Assembly: GCA_963703445.1 (NCBI GenBank)
Contig: CAVPEK010000002.1
Span: 185,154 to 249,153, forward strand
DNA length: 64,000 nucleotides
Direction: 5' to 3'
Origin: an uncultured Thermoleophilia bacterium
GTDB taxonomy: Bacteria > Actinomycetota > Thermoleophilia > Gaiellales > Gaiellaceae
Part shown: piece by piece, positions 14,288-32,059 of the stretch
Layout of the letters: each line of letters starts with the position of its first letter
How positions within the stretch are numbered: position 1 is the stretch's first letter
Translations under genes and position numbers: made by a program
The notes under the pieces: model-generated
The model's database searches: none
What the model saw: only the letters and a program-made list of their open reading frames with translations
Told to the model about the DNA's origin: nothing

Positions 14288-14306
14288 CGACGTCAGACTA
14301 CGGGAG

Positions 14307-15694: not shown

Positions 15695-16143
15695 CCCGTC
15701 ACGTCGCCGCGCCTTCGGGCTCGCCTGCCGGAGCCGAGGGCGTCCTCGATCTTGGCGATCGCCGCAGCCTCGGCTTCGTCGCCGCCGTGGGCGGCGGCCG
15801 CGACCGACCGGGCCAGGTCGAGCACGAACGCCCGATAGGCCTCGAGCTCGTCGGGCGCCTTCGCCTGCAGCAACTGCACGGACGAGCGCAGCGCCTCGAG
15901 CGTGCGCGACTCGACCTCTTCGATCGGCGTCGTGACGCCGAAGCCCGTGCTGTGGCCCTGCGCGACGCGCCGCACGAGCTCGCTGTCCGACTTCTCATGG
16001 GCGGTGGCGACGTGCTTCGCGAGCGCTCCGGCCTCCTTGAACGTGTCGAAGAAGCTCCGGTCGCTGGCCGTGACCAGAAGGCCCGACCCCATCGCGCCGA
16101 CGCGCAGGGTCTCGATCTCGCTGTCGCTCAACGTCTCGGGCAT
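15691..16143 (-). CDS. Hypothetical protein
   Basis: The ATG at 16143 (MPETLSDSEIETL) is preceded by GAGAGGA. The protein is acidic and helical, and I recognised no motif. It is convergent with rmuC, and the two overlap by 4 nt. Confidence 0.55.
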   Translation of the reverse strand: MPETLSDSEIETLRVGAMGSGLLVTASDRSFFDTFKEAGALAKHVATAHEKSDSELVRRVAQGHSTGFGVTTPIEEVESRTLEALRSSVQLLQAKAPDELEAYRAFVLDLARSVAAAAHGGDEAEAAAIAKIEDALGSGRRARRRGDVTG

Positions 16144-16246
16144 CTCAATCCTCTCTCGAGTGGCATCGGTCGTTCCCAGTCTGGCAAAAGCGGTCCGCCT
16201 GCACGCCCGGAGCACGTGGCGGCGGCTCGTCTACGCTCCGAGGCGG

Positions 16247-17296
16247 ATGGAGTCGGCGGGGGGAGGCGTGGTCGAGACGCGCCCACGTGGACCGTGGAGG
16301 TCCACCTGGCTGCGGTTACAGCGCGACCGGTGGTCGGTCGCGGCAATGGGCGCCCTCGCGGCGGTCGTCTTCGTCGCGCTCTTCGGGGGTGCCATCGCGA
16401 CCCGCCTCGTCGGCCACGACGGCTCGAGACCGTTTCCCTACGCAACGAGCTCGGCGCTTCGGCCCGTCGGGCCCTGGACGCGCGTGCCGGAGACCGACGA
16501 GATCAACATCGACATCTACGGCAACATCCTCCCGCCGGACCACCCCGCGAAACGAGCGCTGCTCGTGCTCGGCGCCGATGGGCCACTCGGCCGGGACGAG
16601 TTCATCCGCGTGCTGGACGGTGCCCGGACTTCGCTCGAGATCGCACTCGGCGCCGTGCTGGTCGCTCTGCTGATCGCCGTCCCGGTCGGAGCCGTCGCCG
16701 GGTATTACGGCGGCGCGACCGACACGGTCGTCGCCCGCTTCACGGAGACGGTGATGGCCTTTCCCCTGCTTCTCTTCCTGGTCTTCGCAACCGCCAAGCT
16801 CAGCCCGTCGCTGCGAGGCGTCTCCTACGGCTGGCTCTTGCCCTCGGGTGTGTTCGCCGAGGCGCTGCTGATCGGGATCTTCACGTCGTTCTACCCGACG
16901 AGGCTCGTCCGCGCGCAGCTCCTGACGCTGCGCAACGCAGAGTTCGTCGAGGCGAGCCACATGATCGGAGCTCCGGACTCGCGCATCCTGCGGCGCCACC
17001 TGCTCCCGCACCTCGTCCCGACGCTGCTCGTCTGGGCGCCGATCGCGGTTGCCACGAACATCCTGCTCGAGGTCGGCCTCAGCTTCATCGGCGTCGGTGT
17101 GCAGCCCTCGACGCCGACGTGGGGATCGCTGCTGGCGACGGCGTGGGGAACGGTCTACTCGCCACAGGCGTTCGGCCACGCCCAGACCGCGTGGCAGACC
17201 ATCGTCCCGACGACGGCGATCCTCATCACGGTGCTCTCGCTGAATCAGGTCTCCGAGGGCATCCGTCGTGCGATCGAACCATGGGGCCGACACTGA
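16247..17296 (+). CDS. ABC transporter permease, OppC/DppC type
   Basis: It starts at the ATG at 16247 (MESAGGG). It has an OppC-like N-terminal periplasmic loop and the permease core ...GGATDTVVARFTETVMAFPLLLF...EASHMIGAPDSRILRRHLLPHL (EAA-like loop). Confidence 0.85.
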   Translation: MESAGGGVVETRPRGPWRSTWLRLQRDRWSVAAMGALAAVVFVALFGGAIATRLVGHDGSRPFPYATSSALRPVGPWTRVPETDEINIDIYGNILPPDHPAKRALLVLGADGPLGRDEFIRVLDGARTSLEIALGAVLVALLIAVPVGAVAGYYGGATDTVVARFTETVMAFPLLLFLVFATAKLSPSLRGVSYGWLLPSGVFAEALLIGIFTSFYPTRLVRAQLLTLRNAEFVEASHMIGAPDSRILRRHLLPHLVPTLLVWAPIAVATNILLEVGLSFIGVGVQPSTPTWGSLLATAWGTVYSPQAFGHAQTAWQTIVPTTAILITVLSLNQVSEGIRRAIEPWGRH

Positions 17297-18357
17297 TGCG
17301 GATCATCGGCTTCGTCGCGCGCCGGCTGGCCGCCGCGATGTTCACGCTCCTGATGCTGGTCGCGCTCGCGTTCGTCGTGTACTGGGCGTTGCCGTCCACC
17401 CCGGCGTCGTTCGTCTATCCCGCGGCGCAGCATCTGACCCCGTACCAGCTGCAGAATGCGAATCACCTGCTGGGCCTCGACCGGCCGAAGATCGTGCAGT
17501 ACGGCGACTACATCGCCCACCTGGCACGCGGCGACCTCGGCCGTCAATGGGCCGGCGCGGAACTGCTCCCCGGCAACAAGCTCGTCCAGAAGCCGGTCGG
17601 GGGGCTGCTCTTCCCCGCGGCCGGCGCGACGATCTCGATCATCCTCGGGGGAGCGTTCCTCGTGCTTCTGCTCGCCGTCCCGCTGGGGGCGCTGGCGGGC
17701 AGCCGGGTCGGCTCGTGGAGCGACCGAACGATCTCGATCGTCGCCCTGATCGCGGTCTGCACCCACCCCATGGTGCTCGGCAGCGTCCTGCAGAAGGGCT
17801 TCGCCGACCTGCACCTCCCGTGGCCGCCACTCGGCGGCTACTGCCCGCTCTTCTCGCACGCGAGCGGGTGCGGCGGCCCGACGGACTGGGCGGGGCACCT
17901 GGCGCTGCCCTGGTTCACCTTCGCGCTGCTCTTCCTCGCTCTCTACACGCGCATGATCCGGGTCAGCGTCGCCGAGACGCTGCACGAGGACTTCGTGCGC
18001 ACCGCCCGGGCGAAGGGCGCCGGCGAGACCCGCGTGCTGCGGGTGCACGTTCTGCCGAGCGCGACGCTGCGGGTCCTGACGATGGTCGGGATGGAGATCG
18101 GCACCGCGATCGGGGTCTGCGTCTACATCGAGACCGTCTACGGCATCGGCGGGCTCGGCCGGCTCTCGGTCCTCGCGATGGGCGGTGCGACCACGTCGAT
18201 CGACCTGCCGCTGACGGTGGGGATCGTCGCCCTGATCACGCTGATCGTGGTCGTCGGGAACCTGATCGTGGACGTCCTCTACGCGGTGCTCGACCCGAGG
18301 GCCGGCCGGGAGCCGACCCTCAACCGGGACAAGAGCCTCGCCGGGGGCGTGATCTAG
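17296..18357 (+). CDS. ABC transporter permease, OppB/DppB type
   Basis: MRIIGFVARRLAAAMFTLL is the classic DppB N-terminus. The start overlaps the upstream stop (TGATG). The signature ETLHEDFVRTARAKGAGETRVLRVHVLPSA is present. This gene is the only real part of the 1252-aa track ORF 14599..18357. Confidence 0.85.
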   Translation: MRIIGFVARRLAAAMFTLLMLVALAFVVYWALPSTPASFVYPAAQHLTPYQLQNANHLLGLDRPKIVQYGDYIAHLARGDLGRQWAGAELLPGNKLVQKPVGGLLFPAAGATISIILGGAFLVLLLAVPLGALAGSRVGSWSDRTISIVALIAVCTHPMVLGSVLQKGFADLHLPWPPLGGYCPLFSHASGCGGPTDWAGHLALPWFTFALLFLALYTRMIRVSVAETLHEDFVRTARAKGAGETRVLRVHVLPSATLRVLTMVGMEIGTAIGVCVYIETVYGIGGLGRLSVLAMGGATTSIDLPLTVGIVALITLIVVVGNLIVDVLYAVLDPRAGREPTLNRDKSLAGGVI

Positions 18358-18427
18358 CCGTCCGGGAACGTCCAGCCGCCCTTTGACGTTTACTACTAGT
18401 AGAAGATTTGCTCGGAGAGGAGCCCTT

Positions 18428-19393
18428 TTGAACGACCGGAACGTTCGTGAATTGATCATCGTCGGCGGCGGGCCTGCCGGCTATACGGCCGCGCTCTATG
18501 CGGCGCGTGCCGACCTGGAACCGCTCGTGATCGAAGGGTTCCAGTGGGGCGGCCAGCTGATGATCACGAGCGACGTCGAGAACTACCCCGGGTACGCCGA
18601 CGGCGTGATGGGGCCGGAGATGATGGCCGACTTTCGCCGCCAGGCCGAGCGCTTCGGCGCGGAGTTCATCACCGACGACGTCACGAAGGTCGACTTCTCG
18701 GAACAGCCGCTGCGCGTCTGGGTCGGGGGCGACGAGTACCAGGCACGGGCGGTGATCGTTGCGACTGGAGCGAGCGCACGCTGGCTTGGGATCGAGTCGG
18801 AGGAGCAGCACAAGGGCCGTGGCGTCTCGGCTTGTGCCACCTGTGATGCTGCGTTCTTCCGCGACAAGGACGTCTACGTCGTCGGAGGCGGCGACTCCGC
18901 CTTCGAGGAGGCGTTGTTCCTGTCGAAGTTCGCCTCGCGGGTGCACCTGGTTCATCGCCGCGACGAGTTCCGCGCGTCGAAGATCATGATCGACCGTGCA
19001 GAACAGAACGAGAAGCTCGACTTCGTGCTGAACGCGGTCGTCGAGGAGATCGTCGGCGACGTGAGGGTCGAGGCGCTCCGCCTGCGCAGCACCGCGACCG
19101 ATGCGACGTGGGAGGTGCCGGCCGACGGGCTGTTCGTCGCGATCGGGCACGATCCCAACACGTCACTGTTCGTCGACCAGCTCGACCACGATGAGAACGG
19201 CTACCTGGTCACCAAGCCGGGCTCGACGGAGACGAACATCCCCGGCGTGTTCGCCGTCGGAGACGTGCAGGATCACACCTACCGGCAGGCGATCACGGCC
19301 GCTGGGTCCGGATGCATGGGCGCACTCGACGCGGAGCGGTTCCTCGCCGCGTTATCCGGCCATCCGGGCACGGCTCTGACCGCACAGCGTTAG
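18428..19393 (+). CDS. trxB: Thioredoxin-disulfide reductase
   Basis: IIVGGGPAGYTAALYAAR, the redox-active site ACATCDA and the second dinucleotide motif VVGGGDSAFEEA are all present. A TTG at 18428 preceded by GGAGAGGAG is preferred over the track start at 18383. Confidence 0.9.
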   Translation: MNDRNVRELIIVGGGPAGYTAALYAARADLEPLVIEGFQWGGQLMITSDVENYPGYADGVMGPEMMADFRRQAERFGAEFITDDVTKVDFSEQPLRVWVGGDEYQARAVIVATGASARWLGIESEEQHKGRGVSACATCDAAFFRDKDVYVVGGGDSAFEEALFLSKFASRVHLVHRRDEFRASKIMIDRAEQNEKLDFVLNAVVEEIVGDVRVEALRLRSTATDATWEVPADGLFVAIGHDPNTSLFVDQLDHDENGYLVTKPGSTETNIPGVFAVGDVQDHTYRQAITAAGSGCMGALDAERFLAALSGHPGTALTAQR

Positions 19394-19430
19394 GGGCTGG
19401 GCCAGCCGACGCCCGGGCTAGCCTCGGGGC

Positions 19431-20342
19431 GTGCCAGAGCGTCCCGAGTGGATCGACCTGATCGACCCGTCACGGGACGACCTGCAGGACAAGCTGCCGG
19501 AGAACGTCCACGAGACGGCGTTGCGAGCGCTGCTCGCCCCGCACATCCACGACGACGAGCCGCGGCCCAGGATCGAGTCGCAGGGCGACTACGTCCTGGG
19601 GATCTTCCTCATCCCGATCGCCGTTCCGGACGAGAATCGCGTGTACTACCAGGAGATCGATTTCGTCGCGACGCTCGAGACCTTCGTGACGGTCTCCAAG
19701 ACGCCCCCGGGTGAGGAGGCCTTCGACCCGAAGCCTGCGAAGGAGGCCTGCCGTTCGAACGAGGACGTCGGCATGAACGCGTACCACCTCGTCGATCTGA
19801 TCGCCGAGCGGTTTCTCGACCTCGTCGATGACCTCGACGACGAGATCGAGGAGCTCGAGGACATGGTCGGCCCCGAGCCGGTACGGGTGGTGGGCCAAAG
19901 ACTGCGCAGTCTCCGCCAGGACGTGCGGGGGATCCGGCGCACGCTCACCCCGACACGCGACGCGGTGCGCCGGATCGTCGACGATCGAGTGGAGCTCGAC
20001 GAGGGCGAGCTGTTCCCGCGGCCCGTTGAGATCGCGTTCGGCGACGCCTACGACAAGCTCCTCCGGGCGACCGAAGCTCTCGAATCGTCCCGCGACGCGC
20101 TCGGAGGTGTCCGCGACTATCTCCAGGGCAAGATCGCGAACGACCAGAACGAGGTGATGAAGCGGCTGACGGTGATCGCGTCGCTCCTGCTCGTCCCCAC
20201 GTTCATCGTAGGCCTGTACGGCCAGAACTTCCGCCACATCCCGGAGCTCGCGTGGGGCTACGGCTACTGGTGGTCGTGGGGCTGGATCCTCCTGACGACG
20301 GTCGCCCAGCTTGCGTTCTTCCGCTGGAAGAGGTGGATCTGA
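19431..20342 (+). CDS. CorA-family divalent cation transporter
   Basis: The C-terminus has two TM helices with YGQNF (a variant of the CorA YGMNF motif), after a long soluble N-terminal domain. Confidence 0.75.
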   Translation: MPERPEWIDLIDPSRDDLQDKLPENVHETALRALLAPHIHDDEPRPRIESQGDYVLGIFLIPIAVPDENRVYYQEIDFVATLETFVTVSKTPPGEEAFDPKPAKEACRSNEDVGMNAYHLVDLIAERFLDLVDDLDDEIEELEDMVGPEPVRVVGQRLRSLRQDVRGIRRTLTPTRDAVRRIVDDRVELDEGELFPRPVEIAFGDAYDKLLRATEALESSRDALGGVRDYLQGKIANDQNEVMKRLTVIASLLLVPTFIVGLYGQNFRHIPELAWGYGYWWSWGWILLTTVAQLAFFRWKRWI

Positions 20343-20417
20343 TCCACACCAAGCGTTAAGAGGCCCTCGCAGCCGTCAAATCCGCCTGCGCACGTCCCGC
20401 GTACTCCGACACATCAC

Positions 20418-21440
20418 GTGATGAGAGAGGTGCGCAAACACGACGGCCACCTGATCCGCGAAGGTAGAGCGGCCCGGGCGTTCTGGCTGCGAGAGCCCGG
20501 GTGCGGCGAGATCCGGGCCGTCGCCCTCCCCGAGCCGGGCCCTGGCGACGTCGTCGTCCGGACGCTGCGGTCGGGGATCAGCCGCGGCACCGAAACGCTC
20601 GTGTTTCGCGGCTCTGTGCCACTCGACCAGCGGGCAAGGATGCGTGCGCCGTTCCAGGAAGGCGACTTTCCGGGGCCGGTCAAGTACGGCTACCTGAACG
20701 TCGGCGCGGTGGAGGAGGGGCCCGCAGAGCTGCGCGGCCGCACCGTGTTCTGTCTCTACCCGCACCAGACTGCGTACGTCGTGCCTGCGCGCGCCGTCTC
20801 GGTCGTGCCCGACGGCGTCTCGGAAGCCCGTGCAGTGCTCGCCGGCACCGTCGAGACGGCAATCAACGCGCTGTGGGACGCGGCGCCTTCCGTGGGCGAC
20901 CGGGTAGCCGTCGTGGGTGCCGGCATGGTGGGCTGCTGCGTCGCCCGGCTGCTGCAGCTGTATCCGGCCGTGCAAGTGACGCTCGTCGACGTCGATCCCG
21001 GCCGCGCCGACATCGCGGCCGCTCTCGACGTCGACTTCGCGCAGCCGGAGGGCGCTCCACGGGACCTCGACCTGGTCGTGCATACGAGTGCGTCGTCGGC
21101 GGGGCTTCAGCTCTCGTTGGACCTGCTCGCCGACGAGGGCACCGTCCTCGACCTCAGCTGGTACGGCGACAGCGAGGTTCGTCTCTCGCTGGGAGGGGCG
21201 TTCCACGCCGGCCGCCTCGCCATCCGCTCGAGCCAGGTCGGAACTCTCTCCCCCACCCGGGCCTCGCGCCGGACGTTCGCCGAACGGCGCGCGCTGGCGC
21301 TCGAGTTGCTGCGCGACCGTGCCTTCGACGCCTTGCTCACGGGCGAGTCGCGCTTCGACGAGCTGCCCGAGGTGATGGCGCGTCTGGCCGCCGGAACACT
21401 GCCGGCTCTCTGTCACACGCTCACCTATGGCGAGGCGTAG
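20418..21440 (+). CDS. MDR-superfamily (zinc-type alcohol dehydrogenase-like) oxidoreductase
   Basis: It has a GroES-like N-terminal region and the Rossmann motif VAVVGAGMVGCCVARL. SGISRGTE replaces the usual Cys-containing zinc-ligand segment. It is the first gene of the coupled cluster. Confidence 0.75.
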   Translation: MMREVRKHDGHLIREGRAARAFWLREPGCGEIRAVALPEPGPGDVVVRTLRSGISRGTETLVFRGSVPLDQRARMRAPFQEGDFPGPVKYGYLNVGAVEEGPAELRGRTVFCLYPHQTAYVVPARAVSVVPDGVSEARAVLAGTVETAINALWDAAPSVGDRVAVVGAGMVGCCVARLLQLYPAVQVTLVDVDPGRADIAAALDVDFAQPEGAPRDLDLVVHTSASSAGLQLSLDLLADEGTVLDLSWYGDSEVRLSLGGAFHAGRLAIRSSQVGTLSPTRASRRTFAERRALALELLRDRAFDALLTGESRFDELPEVMARLAAGTLPALCHTLTYGEA

Positions 21441-21446
21441 AACGGC

Positions 21447-21845
21447 GTGTTCAGCCTGACCGTCCGCGATCACTTCATGATCGCCCACAGCCTCCGGGGC
21501 GAGACCTTCGGGCCGGCACAGAGGCTCCACGGTGCGACGTATGTCGTCGAAGCGACGTTTCGACGCACGGAACTCGATGCCGACGGCGTCGTCGTCGACA
21601 TCGGGCGTGCGGCCGAGGCGCTGCGCGCCGTGCTGGCAGAGCTCGACTACCGCAACCTCGACGACGAGCCGAGTCTCGCCGGCGAGAACTCGACGACGGA
21701 AGCCCTCGCTCGCGTGATCGCGAACCGGCTCGCGGAGCGCACCCAGGCCGGCGTGCTCGGAGAGGGCGCCCGGGAGCTGCGCAGCCTCGTGGTCACACTG
21801 CACGAGTCGCCCGTCGCCTCTGCGTCGTACGAGCGGTCGCTGTGA
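21447..21845 (+). CDS. 6-pyruvoyl-tetrahydropterin synthase / QueD-like T-fold protein
   Basis: 132 aa. FMIAHSL...[12 protein letters not shown]...DYRNLDD is the typical PTPS-family pattern. Confidence 0.75.
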
Positions 21846-22894
21846 ACGGCGTCCATTTCATCGTCCCGGCAGGCATCGACGATCCGGACGAGCCGAGTGG
21901 AGGCAACGCCTACGACCGCCGAATTGCACGCGATCTCGCCGCCGCGGGTTGGACGGTGCACGTCCAGGAGGTTTCGGGATCGTGGCCGCGGCCCGACGCT
22001 CGGTCGCTCGACCGCCTCGCGAGTACCGTCAATCGAATCCCCGACGGGGCGCTCGTCCTGCTCGACGGGCTCGTCGCTTCGCCCGCGCCGGAAGTAGTGG
22101 CCTCGGAGGCGGGGCGCCTGCGGCTCGTCGTCCTCGTGCACATGCCGCTCGGTGAGGGCACGGCCAATGGCGACCGGGAGCGAGAAGCGACCGTCCTCCT
22201 GGCCGCCGCGTCCGTCCTCACCACCAGCGCCTGGACCCGGCGGACCCTGCTGGAGCTCTACGGCCTTCCGAGCGACCGCGTCCACGTGGCCGAGCCCGGG
22301 GTCGATCCGGCCGAGCTCGCGCCCGGAACCGCCGCCGCAGGAGCGCTGCTCTCTGTTTCTGCAGTGATCCCGGGCAAAGGTCACGACGTCCTCCTCGAGG
22401 CGCTCGCGCCCCTGAGGGGCTGTCGTTGGGGGTGCAGGTGCATCGGCAGCCTCGAGCGCGACCCGGCCTTCGTGGAACGCCTGCACCGACAGGCCGTCGA
22501 CGCCCGGATCGACGACCGAGTGCGCTTCTCAGGCGCGCAGGGCGAGGCCGAGCTTGCCCGCAGCTACGCCGCATCGGACCTGCTCGTCCTCCCGTCGCGC
22601 GCCGAGAGCTACGGGATGGTCGTTGTGGAGGCGCTCGCGCGCGGGCTTCCTGTCGTCGCCGCCGAGGTCGGCGGCGTGCCGGAGGCTCTGGGCCACGGCG
22701 CCGACGGAACTCGGCCGGGCCTGCTCGTTCCCCCAGGAGACTCCGTCGCGCTCTGCGGCGCGCTCCGGAGCTGGCTCGAGGATGCCGAGCTCCGCCGGCG
22801 GTTGCGCCGTGCGGCCCGGGAGCGGCGCGAGTCGCTCGCGGCTTGGTCGACGACCACGTCCTCCGTCGCGGCGGTGCTCGGGAGGGCGGCGTGA
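21842..22894 (+). CDS. Glycosyltransferase, GT4-like (GT-B fold)
   Basis: The GTG at 21842 overlaps the upstream stop (GTGA). The C-terminal domain carries [31 protein letters not shown], the E-x7-E region of GT4 enzymes. Confidence 0.8.
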
Positions 22895-23715
22895 CAGCAG
22901 CCGCGGCGACCGGTGTCAGCCCCGCCTGGCTCGACCTGCGCGAGCGAGCAGACGGCGCGGCCCGCTCGCGAGACCTCGTCCGGCGACTCCGCCCGCGGCT
23001 TCCCGACGACCGTCCCCTGGTCGTCCACGACCTTGCGTGCGGCAGCGGGTCGATGGGCCGCTGGCTCGCCCCGCTGCTGGCCGGGCCGCAGCGCTGGGTC
23101 CTCCACGACCGCGACCCGGATCTGCTGGCCCTTGCCGAGTCCGCCGTCCCAGACTCCTCCGCCGACGGGGCCGTCGTCACCGTCGAGACCAGGCTGTCCG
23201 ACGTCACCCGGCTCGACCCCGAGGAGCTAGCCGGATCGAATCTCATCACTGCGTCCGCCTTGCTCGATCTGCTCACCGAGGACGAGTTGGCTGCCCTCGT
23301 CGAGGTCTGCGCAGACGCCGGATGCCCGGTGCTCTTCGCGCTCTCCGTCACGGGACGCGTCCAACTGCTCCCGGCTGATCCCTTCGACTCGCGCGTCGCG
23401 GCTTCCTTCGACGCACACCAGCGTCGCGTGACCCCCCGCGGCCGCCTCTACGGCCCTGACGCCGGCGAGGCCGCCGTCAGGGCCTTCCGCCGGCTCGGGG
23501 CCGAGACCGTCGTCAGGCCCAGCCCGTGGCGACTCGGCCCCGAAGACGCCGGACTCACCGCCGAGTGGCTCGCGGGTTGGATCGAAGCCGCGTGCGAGCA
23601 GGACGCGGACCTGGCTACGGACGTCGATCCGTATCGGCGGCGACGACTGCGGGAGGCGGAAGCGGGCCGCCTCGCCGTCACCGTTGGCCACGCCGACCTC
23701 CTGGTGCTGCCGTGA
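22891..23715 (+). CDS. Class I SAM-dependent methyltransferase
   Basis: The GTG at 22891 overlaps the upstream stop (GTGA). It has the motif I-like segment VVHDLACGSGSMGRWL and the acidic motif II HDRD. Confidence 0.7.
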   Translation: MTAAAATGVSPAWLDLRERADGAARSRDLVRRLRPRLPDDRPLVVHDLACGSGSMGRWLAPLLAGPQRWVLHDRDPDLLALAESAVPDSSADGAVVTVETRLSDVTRLDPEELAGSNLITASALLDLLTEDELAALVEVCADAGCPVLFALSVTGRVQLLPADPFDSRVAASFDAHQRRVTPRGRLYGPDAGEAAVRAFRRLGAETVVRPSPWRLGPEDAGLTAEWLAGWIEAACEQDADLATDVDPYRRRRLREAEAGRLAVTVGHADLLVLP

Positions 23716-24680
23716 GAGGCGCCCGTCGGTGGGCCGGGCCGGCGATCGCAGCCGCAGCGCTCACGGTCGTGATCTGGCGCCTCGGCACCGGCCCGTTCCT
23801 GGCCGGGCTGGACGCGCTCGACGGCCGCGCTCTACTGGGCGTGGCGGTCATCTTCTTCGTCACCACCCTCTGCTCTGCCTGGCGCTGGACGATCGTCTCC
23901 CGCGGTCTCGGCGTCCGCCTCTCCTTGCCGGCCGCTGTGGCGGCCTACTACCGGGCGGTTTTCCTCAATCTCGTGCTCCCTGCCGGTGTCGCCGGAGACG
24001 TCCATCGTGGCGTCAGTCACGGCCGCGAGGTCAATGACGTCGGCCGTGGCATGAGAGCCGTCGTGTGGGAGCGGGCCGCCGGGCAGTTCGTCCAGGTCGC
24101 ACTGGCGATCGCCGTCCTGCTGGTGTTGCCGTCACCTGTGCGCTCATCCATGCCCTTCGTCGCGATTGCAGCGGTCATGGTCGTGCTGGGAGTTGTCGGC
24201 GCGAGTCGGATGAGAGCGAAAGGCCGGCATTCTCGGTTGACGCGGATCTGGAACACGGTGGTAACCGACATCCGTGACGGAGTGCTGCGGCGGAACGCGC
24301 TTCCGGCGGTCGTCGTCGCATCGACCGTTGTGTTCATCGGCCACGCGGCCACGTTCCTGGTCGCGGCGCGGACGGTCGGCGTCGACGCGCCGCTCTCGAA
24401 GCTCCTACCTCTGGCTTTGCTCGCGCTGCTCGCCATGGTGCTTCCGAGCATCGGCGGCTGGGGGCCGCGCGAGGGGGCAACCGCATGGGTGTTCGCGGCC
24501 GCGGGCCTCGGGGCGGACCGCGGCGCCGCGACCGCCGTCGCGTACGGCGTCCTGGTGCTCGTCGCCAGCCTTCCCGGAGCGGCGGTGCTCGTTGTGGGAT
24601 GGCTCCCGCGCCATCATTTCTCGAGGGCTCGGTCGCGTAGGCGGGTCGTCTTCGGACCGGAAGGAGCAGCGGATGCGTGA
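23712..24680 (+). CDS. Polytopic membrane protein, lysyl-PG-synthase-TM / flippase-like (UPF0104-type)
   Basis: The GTG at 23712 overlaps the upstream stop (GTGA). It has about 8 predicted TM helices, and segments such as AYYRAVFLNLVLPAGVAGDVHR and PSIGGWGPREGA resemble the flippase-like domain family. Confidence 0.65.
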   Translation: MRGARRWAGPAIAAAALTVVIWRLGTGPFLAGLDALDGRALLGVAVIFFVTTLCSAWRWTIVSRGLGVRLSLPAAVAAYYRAVFLNLVLPAGVAGDVHRGVSHGREVNDVGRGMRAVVWERAAGQFVQVALAIAVLLVLPSPVRSSMPFVAIAAVMVVLGVVGASRMRAKGRHSRLTRIWNTVVTDIRDGVLRRNALPAVVVASTVVFIGHAATFLVAARTVGVDAPLSKLLPLALLALLAMVLPSIGGWGPREGATAWVFAAAGLGADRGAATAVAYGVLVLVASLPGAAVLVVGWLPRHHFSRARSRRRVVFGPEGAADA

Positions 24681-25381
24681 GCGCCCGTACACACTGCTCT
24701 CCTGCTGCACGTCGCTCGACGGCTACATCGCCAGTGCGGCGTCGCGACTGCTCCTATCGAACGACGCCGACCTCGATCGCGTCGACGCGGTGCGCGCTTC
24801 CTGCGACGCGATTCTGGTCGGGGCGGAGACCGTGCGGATCGACAATCCCCGGCTCGTCGTGCGATCCGGACGCTCGTCGTGACGAGCGGGCCGCGCGCGG
24901 CCTGCCGGAGTCGCCGATGAAGGTGACCGTGACGCGACGTGCCGCGCTGGATGCCCGCGCCGACTTCTTCAACGTGGGAGACGCCGAGAAGATCGTCTAT
25001 TGCGCGAGCCCGCGGGTGGCAGACGCGCGCGATCGTCTCGGCCCGGTCGCGACCGTCGTCGACGCCGGCGACGATGTCGAGATGCGCACGCTGAGCACCG
25101 ACCTGGCGGCGCGAGGCGTCGACCGGTTGATGGTGGAGGGCGGCGGCACCGTCCACACGCAGTTCCTCACGGACGACATCGTCGATGAGCTGCAGTTGAC
25201 CGTCGCCCCGATTTTCGTCGGCGACTCGGAGGCGCCCAGGTTCGTGCGTGACGGCATCTTCCCCTGGAGCCCCGCCCGTCGGGCAGAGCTCGTCGAGGTA
25301 CAGAAGCTCGGCGACGTGGTTCTTCTGCGCTACGCCCTCTCGTCACGGTTCGAGGAAGCTGCGCGAGGGAACGGATGTTGA
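24673..25381 (+). CDS. RibD C-terminal-domain (pyrimidine/dihydrofolate-type) reductase, split by an apparent 1-nt frameshift
   Basis: The ATG at 24673 follows AAGGAG. The N-terminal part MRERPYTLLSCCTSLDGYIA...DAILVGAETVRIDNPRLVVRS stops at 24880-24882. The rest (DARRDERAARGLPESPMKVTVT...LMVEGGGTVHTQFL...VAPIFVG) continues in the frame of ORF 24677..25381. The junction is at TCCGGAC, about 24865-24871. Confidence 0.75.
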
Positions 25382-26076
25382 TGCGACTCCCAACGGCGAC
25401 GCTCCGCACGCAGGTCGAGCTACCGCTGCGGTTTGCAGACGGATACACGACCGACGCCCAGGTGTTCAGCTTCGACGGGCTCGTCGACGGTCTGGAGCAT
25501 CTCGCGTTCGCGCTCGGCGATCCTCGGGCCCTTCATTCCGCCGACGAGCGGCACGTGCCGCTCGTCCGCCCCCACAGCGAGTGCCTCACCGGAGACGTGT
25601 TCGGTAGCCGCCGGTGTGACTGCGGGCCGCAGCTCCGCGAGGCCGTCGAGCGCATCGCCGAAGTCGGGGGCTACCTCCTCTACCTCCGTCAGGAGGGCCG
25701 GGGCATCGGGCTCTACTCCAAGCTCGAGGCATATGCGCTGCAGGATGCCGGGATTGACACCTACGACGCGAACCTCGCGCTCGGCCACGACGAGGACGAG
25801 CGCAGCTACGTCGCCGCGGCTCAGATGCTGCACGCGCTCGGCGTGTATCGCATCGCACTCCTCAGCAACAACCCCGACAAGGCGCGGCAGCTGCGGTCCT
25901 GCGGCGTCACCCTGGTCGAGCAGGTGCCGACGGGGGTATACGTTTCTGCCGCAAACCACCGCTACCTGGAGACGAAGGCGCGGCGCGGCCGGCACACACT
26001 CGAGCTCCCGAGCGTCCTGAGGTCGCTCTCAGGTGACGCCCGGTCCGCGGAATCTGATGCGGCGGCTGCGAGGTAG
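25375..26076 (+). CDS. ribA: GTP cyclohydrolase II
   Basis: VRPHSECLTGDVFGSRRCDCGPQL contains the three zinc-ligand Cys residues. YLRQEGRGIGLYSKLEAYALQD and LLSNNPDK are also present. There is no DHBP-synthase domain. Confidence 0.88.
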   Translation: MLMRLPTATLRTQVELPLRFADGYTTDAQVFSFDGLVDGLEHLAFALGDPRALHSADERHVPLVRPHSECLTGDVFGSRRCDCGPQLREAVERIAEVGGYLLYLRQEGRGIGLYSKLEAYALQDAGIDTYDANLALGHDEDERSYVAAAQMLHALGVYRIALLSNNPDKARQLRSCGVTLVEQVPTGVYVSAANHRYLETKARRGRHTLELPSVLRSLSGDARSAESDAAAAR

Positions 26077-26085
26077 GTACGCACG

Positions 26086-26550
26086 ATGCCACTCAGGTCC
26101 GAGAGCCGCCTGACAATCGCCGGCACCGTCCCCGAAGTGTGGGCGTATGTCTGCGACGTGGAGCGCTGGCCGGAGTGGGCGCCGACCGTCCGGCAAAGCT
26201 GGGTTCGCGGAGGGGCTCCGCTCCAGCCCGGCTCGCAGGTGGAGCAGCGGGCGAAGTTGCCCTTCGGGGCCACACGCCACCGGGCGCAGAACGTGACCCT
26301 GGTCGAGGCGCCACGCCGCGTGGCGTTCGCCGGGCCGATGGGCACCTCCACAGCGCGCTGGGGAATGGAGCTCGAGCCGGCCGGCGACGCGCAGACCGAG
26401 GCCGTCATGTGGGTTGAGGTCGACCTCAAGAATGTGATGCGCGCGATACCCGGCCGCGTCCTCAACGACAGGATCCGGCGCGTGATGGATGTCGAGATGG
26501 CGGCGATCAAGGCTGCGGTCGAGTCCGCCGTGCCAGGCGGCTCGCATTGA
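26086..26550 (+). CDS. SRPBCC (polyketide cyclase/START-like) ligand-binding protein
   Basis: 154 aa. The VWAYVCDVERWPEWAP pattern is typical of the SRPBCC family. It lies 9 nt after ribA. Confidence 0.65.
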   Translation: MPLRSESRLTIAGTVPEVWAYVCDVERWPEWAPTVRQSWVRGGAPLQPGSQVEQRAKLPFGATRHRAQNVTLVEAPRRVAFAGPMGTSTARWGMELEPAGDAQTEAVMWVEVDLKNVMRAIPGRVLNDRIRRVMDVEMAAIKAAVESAVPGGSH

Positions 26551-27218
26551 GCGAGATCGACACCACGCGAGAGCGCCTGATCAAGACGTACCGCAAGAAG
26601 GCGAAGCACTACGACCTCACCTCGCGGCTCTACCCCGTTCCCGGGTACCCACAGCAGGCCCAGCGTGTTCGCGCCGTACAAGCACTCGGGCTTCGCCCGG
26701 GAGGCACCGTGGTCGACATCGCCTGCGGCACCGGTCTGAACTTCTCGCTCATCGAGCAGGTGATCGGCCCCAAGGGCAGGATCGTCGGGGTCGATCTGAC
26801 CGACGCGATGCTCACACAGGCCCAGCATCGAATCCGGTCCAACGGGTGGGGCAACATCAGCCTGGTGCAAGCGGACGCGGCGGCATTCGACTTCCCAACC
26901 GAGGTCGACGCGATCCTCTCGACCTACGCTCTGACGCAGGTTCCCGAATGCGGAGACGTGATCGCTCGCGGCGCTGCGGCCCTGTCCTACGGTGGACGCT
27001 GGGCCGTGTTGGATCTCAAGGCTCCGGACAATGCGCCTCGGTGGTTGGCCCAGCTCGGGATCGCTCTCGCGCGGCCCTTCGGGTCGATCGACGACTGGAT
27101 CATGCGCCGTCCGTGGGAGAGGATCGGCGCCGCTATGCACGATACGCTGGCTGATCTCTCCTGGACCGAGTTGTTCTTCGGAACCGCGTTCCTCGCTGCG
27201 GGATCCCGCGGCTCCTAG
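26547..27218 (+). CDS. Class I SAM-dependent methyltransferase
   Basis: The TTG at 26547 overlaps the upstream stop (TTGA). Motif I is VVDIACGTGLN and the post-I segment is VGVDLTDAML. Confidence 0.75.
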   Translation: MSEIDTTRERLIKTYRKKAKHYDLTSRLYPVPGYPQQAQRVRAVQALGLRPGGTVVDIACGTGLNFSLIEQVIGPKGRIVGVDLTDAMLTQAQHRIRSNGWGNISLVQADAAAFDFPTEVDAILSTYALTQVPECGDVIARGAAALSYGGRWAVLDLKAPDNAPRWLAQLGIALARPFGSIDDWIMRRPWERIGAAMHDTLADLSWTELFFGTAFLAAGSRGS

Positions 27219-29599
27219 TGGTCGAATGCGCTGAGGAAGTTGTCCCGGAAGGCGCTCATCAACCAAACCGGCGCTGTCGAGCTGGGCAGCATCCCGTCGG
27301 TCCAGCCCCAACCGGAGAGGCGATTGATCACATTCGGATCGTGGGCGATGATCGTGATCGGCACCTCGTGCCCCGGCTGCCCGTCGATCACCCTTGACGG
27401 TTGGTGATCACCGAGCACGATGAGCACGCTGTTGCTGTTGCCGTAGCGCTCGATGAACGAATAGAGAGCGCGCAGGGCGTACTGAATCGACTGGGCGTAC
27501 CCCTGCTGGGTGTCCGTCAGGCCCGCCCGGTCGATCGGTAGGCGATTGAAGATCGCTCCGTTGCCGAGCCGGTCCCAGGAGATGAGCGGCGGAATGCGCG
27601 TCCAGGGCTCGTGGCTGGATGTGAGATCGATCTCGGAGTAGACGGGGCCCCGGTTTCGCTTCGCCAGCTCGAGCTTCTGCAGAGCCTGGAGCGCGTACTG
27701 GTCCGGCATCGGAGAGAAGCCGAACTTCGGACCGTGATACACGAGGTTGTCCCGGTCCAGGATCTTCTCGTAACGGTAGAAGGAGCTCCCCTCCGGCCAG
27801 GAGCCATGGGTCGCCGGCACGTCGGCGACCGTGCTCCACCCGGCGCGCTGGAAAGCGCTGGCAAGCGTGAGACGTTGACTCGCGATCAGCGCCGAGTAAC
27901 GGCTCGGGCTGTCGACCCAGACTCCCGACTGCAGCGTGGCGTGTGCGAGCCAACTGCCGCCGCCGAACGTCGACGAGACGAGCCAGCCGCTGCGTGCTGA
28001 GAACCCTTTCGCCTGGAGCTGTTGCGTGCCGGCGTTGACGACCTCGTCGATGCCCGGCGAGAAGGACGTTCCCTGAACCGCCATCTGCCCGTAGCTCTCC
28101 ACGAACACGAGCAGCACATCCTTGCCGCGCAGTCCCTTCAGTAGCTCGCCGGTGGGCGTGTCGAGGAGCGGATCTCTGCGACCGATCAGCGTCCGGAAGC
28201 GCGCCTGGTCACGGAGGTCGACGCGCACGAGATTGACCTCGCTGACGGCGAGACGCGCCGCGCTGAACGACGCGACTCCGGCGCCGGAGACCTCTGCGCC
28301 GGCCGCCCGACAGAGCACCCAGACGCCGGCGAACGCGACGGCCATCCACAGCGAGAGCCTCCGGTGACCTGACCCGACCCGGATCAGCTGGCCGACAGCC
28401 AGCGAGGGGACGACGAGCGCTGTGAGGCCGAGCATGAGACCTGCGCCGACCGCGAGATCCGCGTCCCGGCTGCCAAACGTCTCGCGCACGGTCCCGACGC
28501 CGATCGAGAGATAGCTCCAATCCTCGACCGGGTTGAACGGCCGGTCGAAGGCGATGAAGAAGCCCAGGTCGAAGAGCTTCAGCAACACGAGGACGCCGAG
28601 CAGCGGCCCGATCACCCAGGGCACGAAGCGGCGGGCTCGGGTTGGCAGGGCAACCGCCAGGCCGACGATGGCAAGTCCTTCGAGCGGCAGTCGAACGAAG
28701 GAGCCGGGCGTGAGGAGCCACGGCCGGACCGGCGACACGAGAGCGGCCCAGACGACCAGCAGGGCGACGAGCGTGAGCGCGGCTGTTACCGCGGGATTGC
28801 GGTTCCGGACTGCGACAGCCCGCGTGGGCGCATCGCCTCGGTGCCGCCACAGCCACCAGACATCACGACCGAACGACTCGATGAGCAGCGCGAGGGCTAC
28901 GGCCAGCAGCATTCGGCTCGCCACCGACGACACAACGCCGGACGCCGCGATCACCAGTGCGATCCCCTGCGAAGCCGTCACCGTCTTGCGCCAGTCGCGC
29001 CGCGGCAGTGGCGCGCGCATCCACGGGAGCACCCATCCCGCCGCGAAAAACGCGTAGCGCGCAAGACCGATCAGGAGCACCCAGGCGCCCGCGGAGGGGG
29101 CGACCTCGATACTGAGCACGAGGATGAGGAACGCGTCGACCTCGCCGTCGAGCTTTGCCCCGAGCGCAGACTCCGTCCCCGTCCGCCGCGCGAGCCGGCC
29201 GTCGACGAAGTCCAGCGCAAGCGCGACTGACGCGAGCGCCACCAGAGTCGCCACCGCCACGTCGCGTTCGAACGAGGCCGCTGTCAGCGCCGCGACGCCC
29301 ACGGCGAGCGTGGCGCGGATCAGCGTCACCCAGCCCGCCGGGCCGAGCCTCGCTGACGGATCGCGCCAAAGTGCACGCGCGAGCGCCAGGTTCACCGTCA
29401 ACCCACTGGCAAGACCAACCAGCCAGCCCGCGCTGCCAAGGCCGACCGTCCGCGCAAGCACATCCAGGAGCAAGAGCGTGCCGAGGAAGCCGGCCACCGG
29501 ACCGAGCTGATTGCCGAGATCGGCCACCGGGCCCCGGCGCGCCCGCAGCGTTGCTCCACGCCCGAGCATCCCGAGGTCACTACGGTGCCTGGCATGCAT
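27215..29599 (-). CDS. Fusion protein: CDP-alcohol phosphatidyltransferase domain, a multi-TM linker, and a sulfatase/alkaline-phosphatase (LtaS-like) domain
   Basis: The likely start is MHARHRS at 29599, or MLGRG at 29569. The upstream 150 aa of the 945-aa ORF are Arg-rich noise that overlaps the divergent gene. The CDP-OH motif is DFVDGRLARRTGTESALGAKLDGEVDAF. The C-terminal domain has DVLLVFVESYG, SSTFGGGSW and LIVLGDHQP (a GDH-type metal site). Confidence 0.75.
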   Translation of the reverse strand: MHARHRSDLGMLGRGATLRARRGPVADLGNQLGPVAGFLGTLLLLDVLARTVGLGSAGWLVGLASGLTVNLALARALWRDPSARLGPAGWVTLIRATLAVGVAALTAASFERDVAVATLVALASVALALDFVDGRLARRTGTESALGAKLDGEVDAFLILVLSIEVAPSAGAWVLLIGLARYAFFAAGWVLPWMRAPLPRRDWRKTVTASQGIALVIAASGVVSSVASRMLLAVALALLIESFGRDVWWLWRHRGDAPTRAVAVRNRNPAVTAALTLVALLVVWAALVSPVRPWLLTPGSFVRLPLEGLAIVGLAVALPTRARRFVPWVIGPLLGVLVLLKLFDLGFFIAFDRPFNPVEDWSYLSIGVGTVRETFGSRDADLAVGAGLMLGLTALVVPSLAVGQLIRVGSGHRRLSLWMAVAFAGVWVLCRAAGAEVSGAGVASFSAARLAVSEVNLVRVDLRDQARFRTLIGRRDPLLDTPTGELLKGLRGKDVLLVFVESYGQMAVQGTSFSPGIDEVVNAGTQQLQAKGFSARSGWLVSSTFGGGSWLAHATLQSGVWVDSPSRYSALIASQRLTLASAFQRAGWSTVADVPATHGSWPEGSSFYRYEKILDRDNLVYHGPKFGFSPMPDQYALQALQKLELAKRNRGPVYSEIDLTSSHEPWTRIPPLISWDRLGNGAIFNRLPIDRAGLTDTQQGYAQSIQYALRALYSFIERYGNSNSVLIVLGDHQPSRVIDGQPGHEVPITIIAHDPNVINRLSGWGWTDGMLPSSTAPVWLMSAFRDNFLSAFDH

Positions 29600-29616
29600 C
29601 GGTTTCTCGAGGAGCC

Positions 29617-30390
29617 ATGAGCGTGGACGAGCGCCGTTCGCTCGTCGAGGCCCTGCGACGAGGCCAGGAGGCGGCTTTCGGACCGGGCGAATATGTCGAG
29701 CAGGAGAGCTTCGTGCGCGCGTCGGAGATCCGGCTGCTCGCGGAGCAGGCCGCCGTCGGTCCCGGTGTCTCCGTCCTCGACGTGTGCTGCGGAGTCGCCG
29801 GACCGGGCCGCTTCCTGACCCGCGAGCTCGGCTGCGAGTACGTCGGCGTCGACTCGAGCGAGGGCGCCATCTCCATTGCGGCGGAGCGCTCACGGGGCCT
29901 GCACTGCCGTTTCGAGGTGGCCCAGGTACCACCGCTTCCGGCGGGCGCGTTCGAGGTGGTGCTCCAGCTCGAGACGATGCTCGCCTTCCGCGACAAGAGG
30001 TCGCTGCTCGAGGGCGTCGGCTGCGTTCTCTCCGCGGGAGGGCGGTTTGCATTCACGCTGGAAGAGGGTGTGCCGCTGACGGAGTCGGAGCGGGCGCGCA
30101 TGCCTGCCGCCGACACCGTCTGGCTCACGACGCTCGACGAGATGCACGCCTTGCTCGCAGACGCCGGCTTCAGGGTTCGCTGGCAAGAGGATTGGAGCGC
30201 GTCGCACGGCGAAGCGGCCGCTGCGCTGGCCGAGGCCTACGCCGCCGACTCGAACGAGATCGCTTCGCTGATCGGACGTCGAGCGCTGGACGATCTCCTG
30301 GCCTCCCACCGACTCTGGACCGAGTGGCTGACGACGGGCCGCGCTCGCAAGTTCGCGCTGGTGGCAGAACGGCGGTCGGCTGACGGGTAA
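29617..30390 (+). CDS. Class I SAM-dependent methyltransferase
   Basis: The ATG at 29617 follows GAGGAG. Motif I is VLDVCCGVAGPG and the post-I segment is YVGVDSSE. The upstream part of track ORF 29155..30390 is Arg/Pro-rich antisense noise. Confidence 0.75.
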   Translation: MSVDERRSLVEALRRGQEAAFGPGEYVEQESFVRASEIRLLAEQAAVGPGVSVLDVCCGVAGPGRFLTRELGCEYVGVDSSEGAISIAAERSRGLHCRFEVAQVPPLPAGAFEVVLQLETMLAFRDKRSLLEGVGCVLSAGGRFAFTLEEGVPLTESERARMPAADTVWLTTLDEMHALLADAGFRVRWQEDWSASHGEAAAALAEAYAADSNEIASLIGRRALDDLLASHRLWTEWLTTGRARKFALVAERRSADG

Positions 30391-30441
30391 CGCTTCGAGG
30401 CTCGCTCCATCCGACCGCCCCGCGATACTCCCGGACATCGG

Positions 30442-30648
30442 ATGCGGCTCCGATACACCCTGCGGCGGTGGGACGGATCTGACGTGGGCACGGTTGAGGT
30501 CTCTCGACCGGCCTGCGCAGGCGACGAAGTACGCACGAGCAAAGGCGACCGGATGCGGGTTCAAGCTGTCGTCCCCCTCGACCAGGCCGAGGAATCCGAC
30601 GACGAGGCGCGGGCCGGCTTCCTCGTCGTCGAACCGCTCGACGATTAG
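30442..30648 (+). CDS. Small hypothetical protein (68 aa)
   Basis: The ORF has a plausible acidic C-terminus, but I recognised no motif and saw no clear RBS. Confidence 0.3.
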   Translation: MRLRYTLRRWDGSDVGTVEVSRPACAGDEVRTSKGDRMRVQAVVPLDQAEESDDEARAGFLVVEPLDD

Positions 30649-30752
30649 TCCGCTTTTTGCGCAAACCTGCGCCCGCGACCCGAGGATCCGAGTAGAAACC
30701 TGGTCTTTCGCCGCCCGAGCGGGGCGATAGGTTCGCAACATCGGCGGAGCGA

Positions 30753-30907
30753 CAGCGGCGGCCAAGGGGAGAGGTTCGGGCCGCCGCTGCCGCCTTCGCC
30801 TGGTCCGCAGACTCTCACATGAGAGCCGGCACAACAAACTCGCCGCCACCCGGCCGGTCCAGGGCAGGCGAGATCCGCTCCTCTCCCCTATGCGAAAGCA
30901 GCGGATC
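30753..30907. ncRNA. Candidate structured RNA with two hairpins whose loops are mutually complementary
   Basis: Hairpin 1 has a perfect 11-bp stem (CAGCGGCGGCC 30753-63 pairing with GGCCGCCGCTG 30779-89). Hairpin 2 has a perfect 8-bp stem (GATCCGCT 30872-79 pairing with AGCGGATC 30900-07). Loop 1 contains AGGGGAGAGG (30765-74), which is perfectly complementary to CCTCTCCCCT (30880-89) in loop 2. The region is about 370 bp of non-coding spacer between convergent genes. Confidence 0.3.
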
Positions 30908-31018
30908 AGTCGCCGCAGACGAGCCGGGCCTCCCCCGCCCACATGCCGCTCGGCCGCAAGGCACTCTCACCCGCGAAGCGGCGATCCGGTATCCCTCGAA
31001 GGGGTGAGTGAGCTGGAC

Positions 31019-32051: not shown

Positions 32052-32059
32052 CGGCGCGG

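Follow-up and report, generated by a model that had tools for sequence, protein, structure and literature searches.

A conserved gene cluster around a PTPS-IV protein joins a GTP-opening branch to phospholipid-headgroup machinery in an uncultured Thermoleophilia bacterium

The window analyzed here is a stretch of 64,000 nucleotides from an uncultured Thermoleophilia bacterium (contig CAVPEK010000002.1, positions 185,154 to 249,153), and the system under study is a gene cluster within it that is built around a T-fold protein of the PTPS-IV subfamily and a GTP cyclohydrolase II. The cluster is the orthologue of the SCO6650 (PTPS-IV) cluster of Streptomyces coelicolor, and its genes form a single co-inherited, translationally coupled unit in which a GTP-opening branch is joined to phospholipid-headgroup machinery. 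Its genes are listed below with their predicted products and the families that were matched; SAM stands for S-adenosylmethionine.

20418..21440, plus strand: gene 1, BchC-like medium-chain dehydrogenase/reductase (MDR) without zinc ligands, Rossmann motif VVGAGMVG (TIGR01202, below cutoff)
21447..21845, plus strand: gene 2, PTPS-IV T-fold protein, SCO6650 orthologue (PF01242; match to 3D7J)
21842..22894, plus strand: gene 3, GT4 retaining glycosyltransferase, EX7E motif ESYGMVVVE (PF00534)
22891..23715, plus strand: gene 4, class I SAM methyltransferase, motif I DLACGSG (PF13649, at cutoff)
23712..24680, plus strand: gene 5, MprF-type flippase-like (PplT / LPG_synthase_TM) membrane protein (PF03706, TIGR00374)
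24673..25381, plus strand: gene 6, archaeal-type (Rib7/ArfC-like) pyrimidine nucleotide reductase, frame broken (PF01872, RibD_C)
25375..26076, plus strand: gene 7, GTP cyclohydrolase II of the Tyr type (PF00925, NF001591)
26086..26550, plus strand: gene 8, SRPBCC/START-like ligand-binding protein, accessory (PF10604)
26547..27218, plus strand: gene 9, UbiE/MenG-like SAM methyltransferase, accessory (PF13649, PF01209)
27215..29569, minus strand: convergent gene, CDP-alcohol phosphatidyltransferase with an LtaS/EptC-like domain (PF01066; PF00884 in homologues)
29617..30390, plus strand: divergent gene, third SAM methyltransferase (PF13649 and others)

The guanine-cytosine (GC) content of the window lies between 66 and 74%, and the codon-position GC profile indicates uninterrupted coding on the plus strand from about 14.5 kb to 27.2 kb, supporting all nine plus-strand frames of genes 1 to 9. 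The junction sequences contain 4-nt GTGA overlaps at 21842, 22891, and 23712. Genes 5 and 6 overlap by ATGCGTGA (8 nt, at 24673), genes 6 and 7 by ATGTTGA (7 nt, at 25375), and genes 8 and 9 by TTGA at 26547, and the two intergenic gaps measure 6 nt (21441-21446) and 9 nt (26077-26085). The nine-gene chain with these overlaps and gaps, as described in the original prediction, was confirmed by translation, junction sequences, and codon-position GC. The nine domain assignments made there also hold by Pfam and NCBIfam, the softer ones being those of gene 1, which scored below cutoffs, and gene 4, which scored at the cutoff.

In the species survey, one genome per species was scanned for a pattern of two PTPS-IV-specific peptide motifs, and the PTPS-IV gene was detected in at least 582 species genomes. 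Eighty loci were retrieved, which span Thermoleophilia (Gaiellales, Solirubrobacterales), Micromonospora, Streptomyces, Pseudonocardiales, Jiangellaceae, Aeromicrobium, Saccharopolyspora, and Jatrophihabitantaceae. Genes were called in all of them and 1,408 proteins were clustered independently of the window, and the biggest co-located families that emerged were exactly the genes of the window. Partners were counted over the 57 loci whose flanks each measured at least 8 kb. PTPS occurred in all 57 of these full-flank loci, the dehydrogenase and the GT4 glycosyltransferase in 56 each, the flippase-like protein in 55, RibD_C in 52, and the gene 4 methyltransferase in 51. They were followed by the CDP-alcohol phosphatidyltransferase and/or LtaS-like protein with 48, cyclohydrolase II with 35, and the third methyltransferase with 33, and the UbiE-like methyltransferase (gene 9) and the SRPBCC protein (gene 8) were found in 13 and 11 loci, respectively. 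The latter two travel together as one block and represent an accessory pair. Median identity across classes amounted to 74-77% for PTPS and the dehydrogenase.

The translational couplings are not a product of chance, as they recur in homologous loci across classes: the 4-nt overlap of PTPS and GT4 was kept in 51 of 70 loci and that of GT4 and the gene 4 methyltransferase in 48 of 55, and the spacing of the flippase-like and RibD_C genes had a median of -8 nt. The membrane transferase gene lies convergent and downstream in Gaiellales-like loci, is co-directional in some Solirubrobacterales, and in Micromonospora stands divergent and upstream, split into two genes; the stand-alone CDP-alcohol transferase of Micromonospora and Streptomyces is the split form of the fusion. 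Its proximity to the cluster outlasts rearrangement. The conserved unit consequently comprises eleven genes from 20418 to 30390, including 27215-29569 (minus strand) and 29617-30390 (plus strand), and the nine-gene boundary drawn earlier, which left these two out, was wrong; genes 8 and 9 are accessory members. The genes upstream on the same strand (RmuC, two ABC permeases, a TrxB-like reductase, and CorA) were not found in the homologous loci and are therefore placed outside the unit. The gene-neighborhood analysis that had been proposed as a check thus showed the genes to be co-conserved as a single unit in Thermoleophilia, Micromonospora, Streptomyces, Pseudonocardiales, and others.

Further families accompany the cluster in subsets of loci, namely an extracytoplasmic function (ECF) sigma factor and, beside the membrane transferase, an acyltransferase-3. 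The ECF sigma family adjoins the cluster in 11 of the 57 loci; an ECF-type sigma factor also lies at 36656-37615 (minus strand) in the window, about 6 kb downstream of the cluster. The acyltransferase-3 (PF01757, OpgC-like) stands directly beside the CDP-alcohol phosphatidyltransferase/LtaS-like gene in L016 (11881-13026) and in eight other Solirubrobacterales-type loci, which hints at O-acylation of an exported product. One locus titled "uncultured Acidobacteriaceae bacterium" (L003) carries a typical Thermoleophilia-type cluster with a PTPS identity of 80%, which probably reflects a mislabelled or misbinned contig and not an occurrence outside the Actinomycetota.

Gene 7 was assigned to the RibA-type GTP cyclohydrolases II by its curated score and its residues. 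It was matched by PF00925 with 177 bits (2e-52) and by NF001591 with 246 bits against a cutoff of 148, and aligned with 2BZ0 and 4I14 at 1e-42 to 1e-44. Its catalytic motifs are intact, with the zinc Cys triad in HSECLTGD...RCDCG and the product-determining Tyr in EAYALQD. This Tyr, the retention of which had been suspected and is confirmed here, is kept in all loci but those of Streptomyces, where Met or Leu takes its place in five out of five. In L071 (14200-14931) and L073 (14125-14874), the two Streptomyces loci whose neighboring gene was scanned, a creatininase-family gene (PF02633) with a weak ArfB match lies beside the Met-type cyclohydrolase. The creatininase family is that of the archaeal deformylase ArfB, and the pairing suggests an archaeal-style cyclohydrolase and deformylase in Streptomyces. 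SCO6655, the cyclohydrolase II paralogue of the S. coelicolor PTPS-IV cluster, is a Met variant that halts at the formamidopyrimidine, so a deformylase would restore the intermediate of the Tyr enzyme.

Two single-ORF (open reading frame) combinations were observed: cyclohydrolase II with RibD_C in L026 (7011-8399, minus strand) and the third methyltransferase with the CDP-alcohol phosphatidyltransferase/LtaS-like protein in L024 (15014-18349, plus strand). Both stem from long-read metagenome bins, may be true fusions or indel artefacts, and are taken as weak hints only. L026 also contains a HAD-type hydrolase (8397-9011, plus strand) that overlaps the start of the dehydrogenase gene, and L024 and L026 are two PTPS-IV loci of the same metagenome bin, MFD04463.bin.2.227. 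Apparent fusions of GT4 with methyltransferase and of methyltransferase with the flippase-like protein in some long-read metagenome bins were set aside, as internal out-of-frame stretches mark them as indel artefacts.

The cluster does not correspond to a canonical rib, fol, or que operon. Domains of a deaminase, DHBP synthase, lumazine synthase, or riboflavin synthase are absent from its genes, as are Fol and Que domains, in agreement with the first description, and profile scans of the genes from 14540 to 30390 returned no domains of a canonical rib operon. A search of 14000-32000 for riboswitches, such as the FMN riboswitch usual in riboflavin operons, or other RNAs gave no Rfam match at E <= 1 save a chance miRNA match.

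The interval of gene 6 (24673-25381) measures 709 nt and has no through-translation, a frameshift that had been missed when the gene was counted as an ordinary ORF in the nine-gene chain. Read from the ATG at 24673, the sequence encodes a good RibD_C N-terminus (LLSCCTSLDGYIA, then DAILVGAETVRIDNPRL) up to a TGA stop at 24878-24880, and the remainder of the domain follows in the +1 frame. The window contains one extra base at 24866-24868 that is missing from four aligned homologues. Metagenome contig L081, which is 98.4% identical over 8.8 kb and encodes an intact gene 6 of 235 aa, shows 141 substitutions relative to the window, with this base as the sole indel, so the assembly is not full of indels. 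The frameshift is either a lone assembly error or a genuine strain-specific inactivation that makes gene 6 a pseudogene; the pathway in this sequence may be crippled, or the break may be a single-base sequence error. The idea of a start elsewhere than at the ATG of 24673 was rejected, since the homologues start alike and have the same 8-nt overlap.

Once repaired, the reductase appears to be of the archaeal Rib7/ArfC type. Among solved structures it is closest to the archaeal 2,5-diamino-6-ribosylamino-pyrimidinone 5'-phosphate reductases (DARPP reductases; 5XV5 with 3e-28, 6P8C with 5e-26, and 2AZN with 1e-18), farther from Rv2671 (3e-18), and much farther from bacterial RibD (1e-8). Its best NCBIfam model is TIGR01508 with 141 bits, under the cutoff of 186. 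An identity as a pterin reductase resembling dihydrofolate reductase (the Rv2671 type) is less likely, given 3e-18 compared with 1e-26 to 1e-28 for the archaeal DARPP reductases. The ribitylamino-pyrimidine step put forward earlier gains support from this similarity, and as the cluster contains no deaminase, the product of the reductase likely keeps its 2-amino group.

Gene 2 was matched by PF01242 with 99 bits (2e-28) and is 70% identical to SCO6650 (3D7J) over its full length. The earlier statement that S. coelicolor has a PTPS homologue beside a cyclohydrolase II paralogue is therefore correct. The SCO6650 crystal structure was determined, and the GTP cyclohydrolase II paralogues of Streptomyces were studied, around 2008. 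An FGPAQ signature is present and nearly invariant in 80 homologues. This signature and a PF00925/PF01872 neighborhood define the PTPS-IV subfamily (PMC5445326), and together with the similarity to 3D7J they place gene 2 in it. The protein reads AQRLHGAT and LDYRNL, in which Ala replaces the catalytic Cys, Ala the third zinc His, and Tyr the relay (triad) His, and it retains the C-terminal Glu-containing motif HES. Models of QueD and 6PTHBS scored under their cutoffs. By its residues, gene 2 thus falls outside the catalytic PTPS/QueD enzymes (COG0720 types I-III), which are recognized by a CxxxHGH (or CxxxxxHGH / ExxHGH) motif, with a catalytic Cys/Glu and three zinc-binding His, and by an Asp-His relay, and the rule that PTPS-fold enzymes act on pterins is not simply transferable to a protein that has lost these three residues. 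Gene 1 resembles the MDR family only below curated cutoffs (TIGR01202 bchC, 54 bits, 1.7e-14); the zinc ligands GHE/Cys are missing, with GYL in place of GHE, and conservation within the family is high.

No NCBIfam equivalog scored above cutoff for any tailoring or membrane gene. Gene 3 was matched by PF00534 (105 bits, 4.6e-30), and its nearest solved structures were MshA (1e-17), sucrose-phosphate synthase (2e-17), and BshA (3e-14). PimA and BGluT were reached at about 1e-7 to 3e-8 only, the tetrahydrobiopterin glucosyltransferase 5ZE7 with 3e-8. By these matches, gene 3 is closer to glycosyltransferases for small polyol phosphates or acids than to those with lipid acceptors, and on the MshA model it reached 96 bits against a cutoff of 462. 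PF13649 (Methyltransf_25) matched gene 4 with 27.0 bits, which is exactly the cutoff, and PF10604 matched gene 8 at 1.7e-13; gene 9 is UbiE-like, with matches to PF13649 and PF01209. The third methyltransferase (29617-30390) was related to the DVU_1556 family (4e-17) and weakly to Mtf2, phthiotriol methyltransferase, and CFA synthase, and thus weakly resembles lipid methyltransferases.

The membrane branch consists of gene 5 and the protein of 27215-29569. PF03706 covered gene 5 over its full length with 100 bits against a cutoff of 33 (1.7e-28) and TIGR00374 scored 48.5 against 43.2, so that gene 5 is assigned an MprF flippase-like domain. PF03706 proteins have been proposed as phospholipid translocases and are often fused to GT-B domains in Actinobacteria (bioRxiv 10.1101/2022.03.11.483950). 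In the protein of 27215-29569, hydropathy points to a CDP-alcohol phosphatidyltransferase part of about eight transmembrane (TM) segments, an Arg/Lys-rich loop, five further TM segments, and a soluble domain of 360 residues; five TM segments before an outside domain is the topology of LtaS. CDP-alcohol phosphatidyltransferases are recognized by the motif D(x)2DG(x)2AR(x)8G(x)3D(x)3D in a polytopic membrane domain. This motif is intact (DFVDGRLARRTGTESALGAKLDGEVD) and PF01066 scored above its cutoff, which identifies the first part as a member of this family. PF00884 (Sulfatase) was found on many homologues and had no match on the window protein itself. A profile of 31 sequences reached LtaP (4UOP) weakly, at 2e-4, and the conserved E187, T230, SSH347-349, and GDH416-418 align with the metal-ligand and nucleophile positions of LtaP. 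The top Foldseek matches were EptC, LtaS, LtaP, YejM, BcsG, and MCR-1; as the alignment was shallow, the structure model was poor (pLDDT, the predicted local distance difference test score, of 49.6; TM-scores of about 0.37), and the fold search serves as corroboration only. The earlier suggestion that the product may be exported or attached to the envelope is strengthened by the presence of this protein in the conserved set.

Taken together, the cluster may produce a GTP-derived, glycosylated, and methylated pyrimidine or pterin compound that is linked to a membrane lipid or the envelope, a reading to which we give a little less than an even chance. GTP cyclohydrolase II would open GTP to 2,5-diamino-6-ribosylamino-4(3H)-pyrimidinone 5'-phosphate, an intermediate that Streptomyces would reach by its Met-type enzyme and the creatininase-family deformylase. 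The archaeal-type reductase would convert it to the ribitylamino form with the 2-amino group kept, and PTPS-IV, with the Glu of HES taken as the residue that binds the 2-amino-4-oxopyrimidine and with its zinc/Cys chemistry lost, would remodel the side chain together with the BchC-like secondary-alcohol dehydrogenase. Speculatively, a pteridine ring might be closed if a ribityl secondary alcohol were oxidized to a keto form able to cyclize with the 5-amino group, as in the second half of the GTP cyclohydrolase I reaction. The MshA-like GT4 would glycosylate the polyol phosphate and the methyltransferases would decorate the compound. The CDP-alcohol phosphatidyltransferase could then couple it to CDP-diacylglycerol, the MprF-type flippase-like protein could carry the lipid to the outer leaflet, and the fused LtaS/EptC-like domain could pass the phospho-headgroup to an acceptor outside the cytoplasm. 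Two main arguments tie the soluble and membrane halves into one pathway: the flippase-like gene sits, with overlapping codons, between genes for soluble enzymes, and the membrane transferase remains adjacent through several rearrangements. The fully specified version, in which Actinomycetota would make a previously undescribed class of phospholipid or envelope decoration whose diamino-ribitylaminopyrimidinone or pteridine headgroup is glycosylated, methylated, flipped, and transferred outside, with PTPS-IV as the long-sought enzyme or carrier for the pyrimidine intermediate, is tentative and rather unlikely.

Several observations weigh against this lipid- or envelope-linked product. Cyclohydrolase II was not found in 22 of the 57 full-flank loci, no membrane transferase was found within 10 kb in nine of them, and RibD_C was not found within 10 kb in four of the five Streptomyces loci. 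PTPS-IV, having lost the known catalytic residues, may be no enzyme at all, and a 2016 review assigns it a role in archaeal F420 synthesis, citing unpublished work (PMC5041015). The substrates named above beyond that of cyclohydrolase II are suggested by family resemblance. The CDP-alcohol phosphatidyltransferase domain matched no characterized equivalog (PgsA, PssA, and PIPS all below 27 bits), and the LtaS-like fold is weakly indicated, by the profile match of 2e-4 and the model with a pLDDT of 49.6.

A soluble decorated pteridine or pyrimidine, the version of the original prediction, which would be cytoplasmic or secreted and serve as a cofactor, pigment, or signal like the pterin glycosides of cyanobacteria, is a rather unlikely alternative, in which the membrane proteins would only export the product or serve a neighboring function. 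Cyclohydrolase II, the reductase, the T-fold protein, GT4, and the methyltransferases are all of soluble-enzyme types, GT4 is somewhat similar to the tetrahydrobiopterin glucosyltransferase (5ZE7, 3e-8), and the membrane transferase is missing nearby in the nine loci mentioned. However, the flippase-like gene is conserved like the soluble core (55 of 57 loci) and shares codon overlaps with genes for soluble enzymes, the CDP-alcohol phosphatidyltransferase/LtaS-like genes remain adjacent despite rearrangements, and PF03706 and LtaS/EptC-type domains act on lipids rather than on soluble exports.

It is improbable that two unrelated modules, one for a lipid or teichoic-acid-like headgroup (GT4, the flippase-like protein, the CDP-alcohol phosphatidyltransferase/LtaS-like protein, and a methyltransferase) and one for a small GTP-derived compound, merely lie side by side. 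The single-ORF combinations occur only within the halves (cyclohydrolase II with RibD_C, and methyltransferase with CDP-alcohol phosphatidyltransferase), and only 35 of 57 loci contain cyclohydrolase II, as such an arrangement would allow. PTPS-IV and the dehydrogenase, however, are always directly upstream of GT4 and coupled to it, RibD_C and the flippase-like gene overlap by 8 nt in most loci, and the combination persists across otherwise rearranged classes.

An auxiliary, archaeal-style supply of riboflavin or F420 precursors, in which PTPS-IV would act as the missing 2-amino deaminase or in a related step toward 5-amino-6-ribitylaminouracil, appears distinctly improbable. It would accommodate the archaeal-type reductase, the creatininase/ArfB-like partner in the Streptomyces loci, and the review that ties PTPS-IV to F420 synthesis. 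It would leave GT4, three methyltransferases, the flippase-like protein, and the CDP-alcohol phosphatidyltransferase/LtaS-like protein unexplained, which are equally conserved, and the cluster contains no lumazine, riboflavin, or FO synthase. S. coelicolor also has a separate canonical rib operon, which we count against this explanation. Finally, cyclohydrolase II and the methyltransferases are reminiscent of tox clusters, but an antibiotic or toxin cluster of the toxoflavin/fervenulin type is barely credible in view of the lack of RibD deaminase, ToxC-like, and ToxD-like genes, the very high conservation across classes (median identity of 74-77% for PTPS and the dehydrogenase), and an occurrence in at least 582 species that fits a physiological function rather than a sporadic secondary metabolite.

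The headgroup reading, if the link to lipid or envelope is true, would imply a new use for a riboflavin-pathway intermediate and a new cell-envelope chemistry, and it could matter for the Thermoleophilia that abound in soil and, possibly, for immune-active ribityl-pyrimidine ligands. Both the spread of the cluster and the strictness of its conservation far exceed those expected of a secondary-metabolite cluster, and its carriers include genera open to genetic work, Streptomyces and Micromonospora among them. The phospholipid-headgroup machinery belongs to the cluster just as much as the GTP branch does, which turns the vague problem of an unknown pterin into a concrete and testable question.

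Elsewhere in the window, a large UvrD-helicase/PD-(D/E)XK nuclease gene pair of the AddAB/AdnAB-like type lies at 41202-44519 and 44600-47536 (both minus strand). More DNA-repair genes are near, with an HhH-GPD glycosylase at 33386-34066, a DinG-like helicase at 12431-14287, and RmuC at 14540-15694. The coding signal is weak from 30400 to 32800; an ORF of 553 aa at 31404-33065 gave no Pfam match and is followed by a PAS-like fragment at 32852-33292.

The cluster is not altogether undescribed. The PTPS-IV/PF00925/PF01872 neighborhood was noted in 2017, with PF00925 mislabelled there as FolE2 (PMC5445326). A literature search by SCO locus tags, PTPS-IV/COG0720, enzyme combinations, and 3D7J returned no functional study or product assignment and no paper on the membrane half. 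No match to an already characterized pathway emerged, and no NCBIfam equivalog names the members beyond generic families.

Among known systems, the Streptomyces loci including that of S. coelicolor are the nearest. They have the same gene order, running from a divergent CDP-alcohol phosphatidyltransferase through the dehydrogenase, PTPS, GT4, a methyltransferase, and the flippase-like protein, with cyclohydrolase II nearby. In contrast to these loci, where the cyclohydrolase carries Met or Leu, the window enzyme carries Tyr, and its operon has a RibD_C reductase and no creatininase gene; the CDP-alcohol phosphatidyltransferase is fused to an LtaS-like domain, and the SRPBCC and methyltransferase pair is added. 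With the early riboflavin/F420 pathway of archaea and fungi (GTP cyclohydrolase III ArfA, ArfB, and ArfC/Rib7), the cluster shares a predicted reduction before or without deamination and a reductase nearest to Rib7/ArfC structures, and the Met/Leu cyclohydrolase with a creatininase-family gene in Streptomyces is a further likeness. Unlike that pathway, it has no deaminase, DHBP synthase, lumazine synthase, riboflavin synthase, or FO synthase, and its reductase, which scores under the TIGR01508 cutoff, stands among glycosyl-, methyl-, and phosphatidyltransferases. The toxoflavin cluster (ToxB, ToxE as full RibD, ToxC, ToxD, and ToxA) has counterparts in the window only for cyclohydrolase II and the methyltransferases, and neither a deaminase domain nor further conserved families were found in the 80 loci.

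Among individual enzymes, MshA, BshA, and BGluT share with gene 3 the GT4 fold with EX7E, and the best solved-structure matches, MshA and BshA, act on a small polyol phosphate or acid, whereas gene 3 scores far under the equivalog cutoffs and lies in another genomic context. Gene 5 matches the flippase domain PF03706 of MprF over its full length and, unlike MprF, lacks the aminoacyl-phosphatidylglycerol synthase domain, standing alone like the "PplT" proteins. LtaS/LtaP and EptC/MCR-1/BcsG have in common with the membrane transferase five TM segments followed by an extracytoplasmic domain of the alkaline-phosphatase superfamily, with the Glu, Thr, SSH, and GDH positions, and enzymes of this type pass a phospholipid headgroup (phospho-) to an acceptor outside the membrane. 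The window protein differs from them in that the similarity is remote (profile 2e-4) and in its fusion to a CDP-alcohol phosphatidyltransferase, an architecture for which no characterized enzyme was found. As a system, the predicted wiring of a GTP branch to phospholipid-headgroup machinery was found to match nothing characterized. The sequence is a new member of a cluster family that had already been noticed, and its pathway, still an orphan, is real and strongly conserved.

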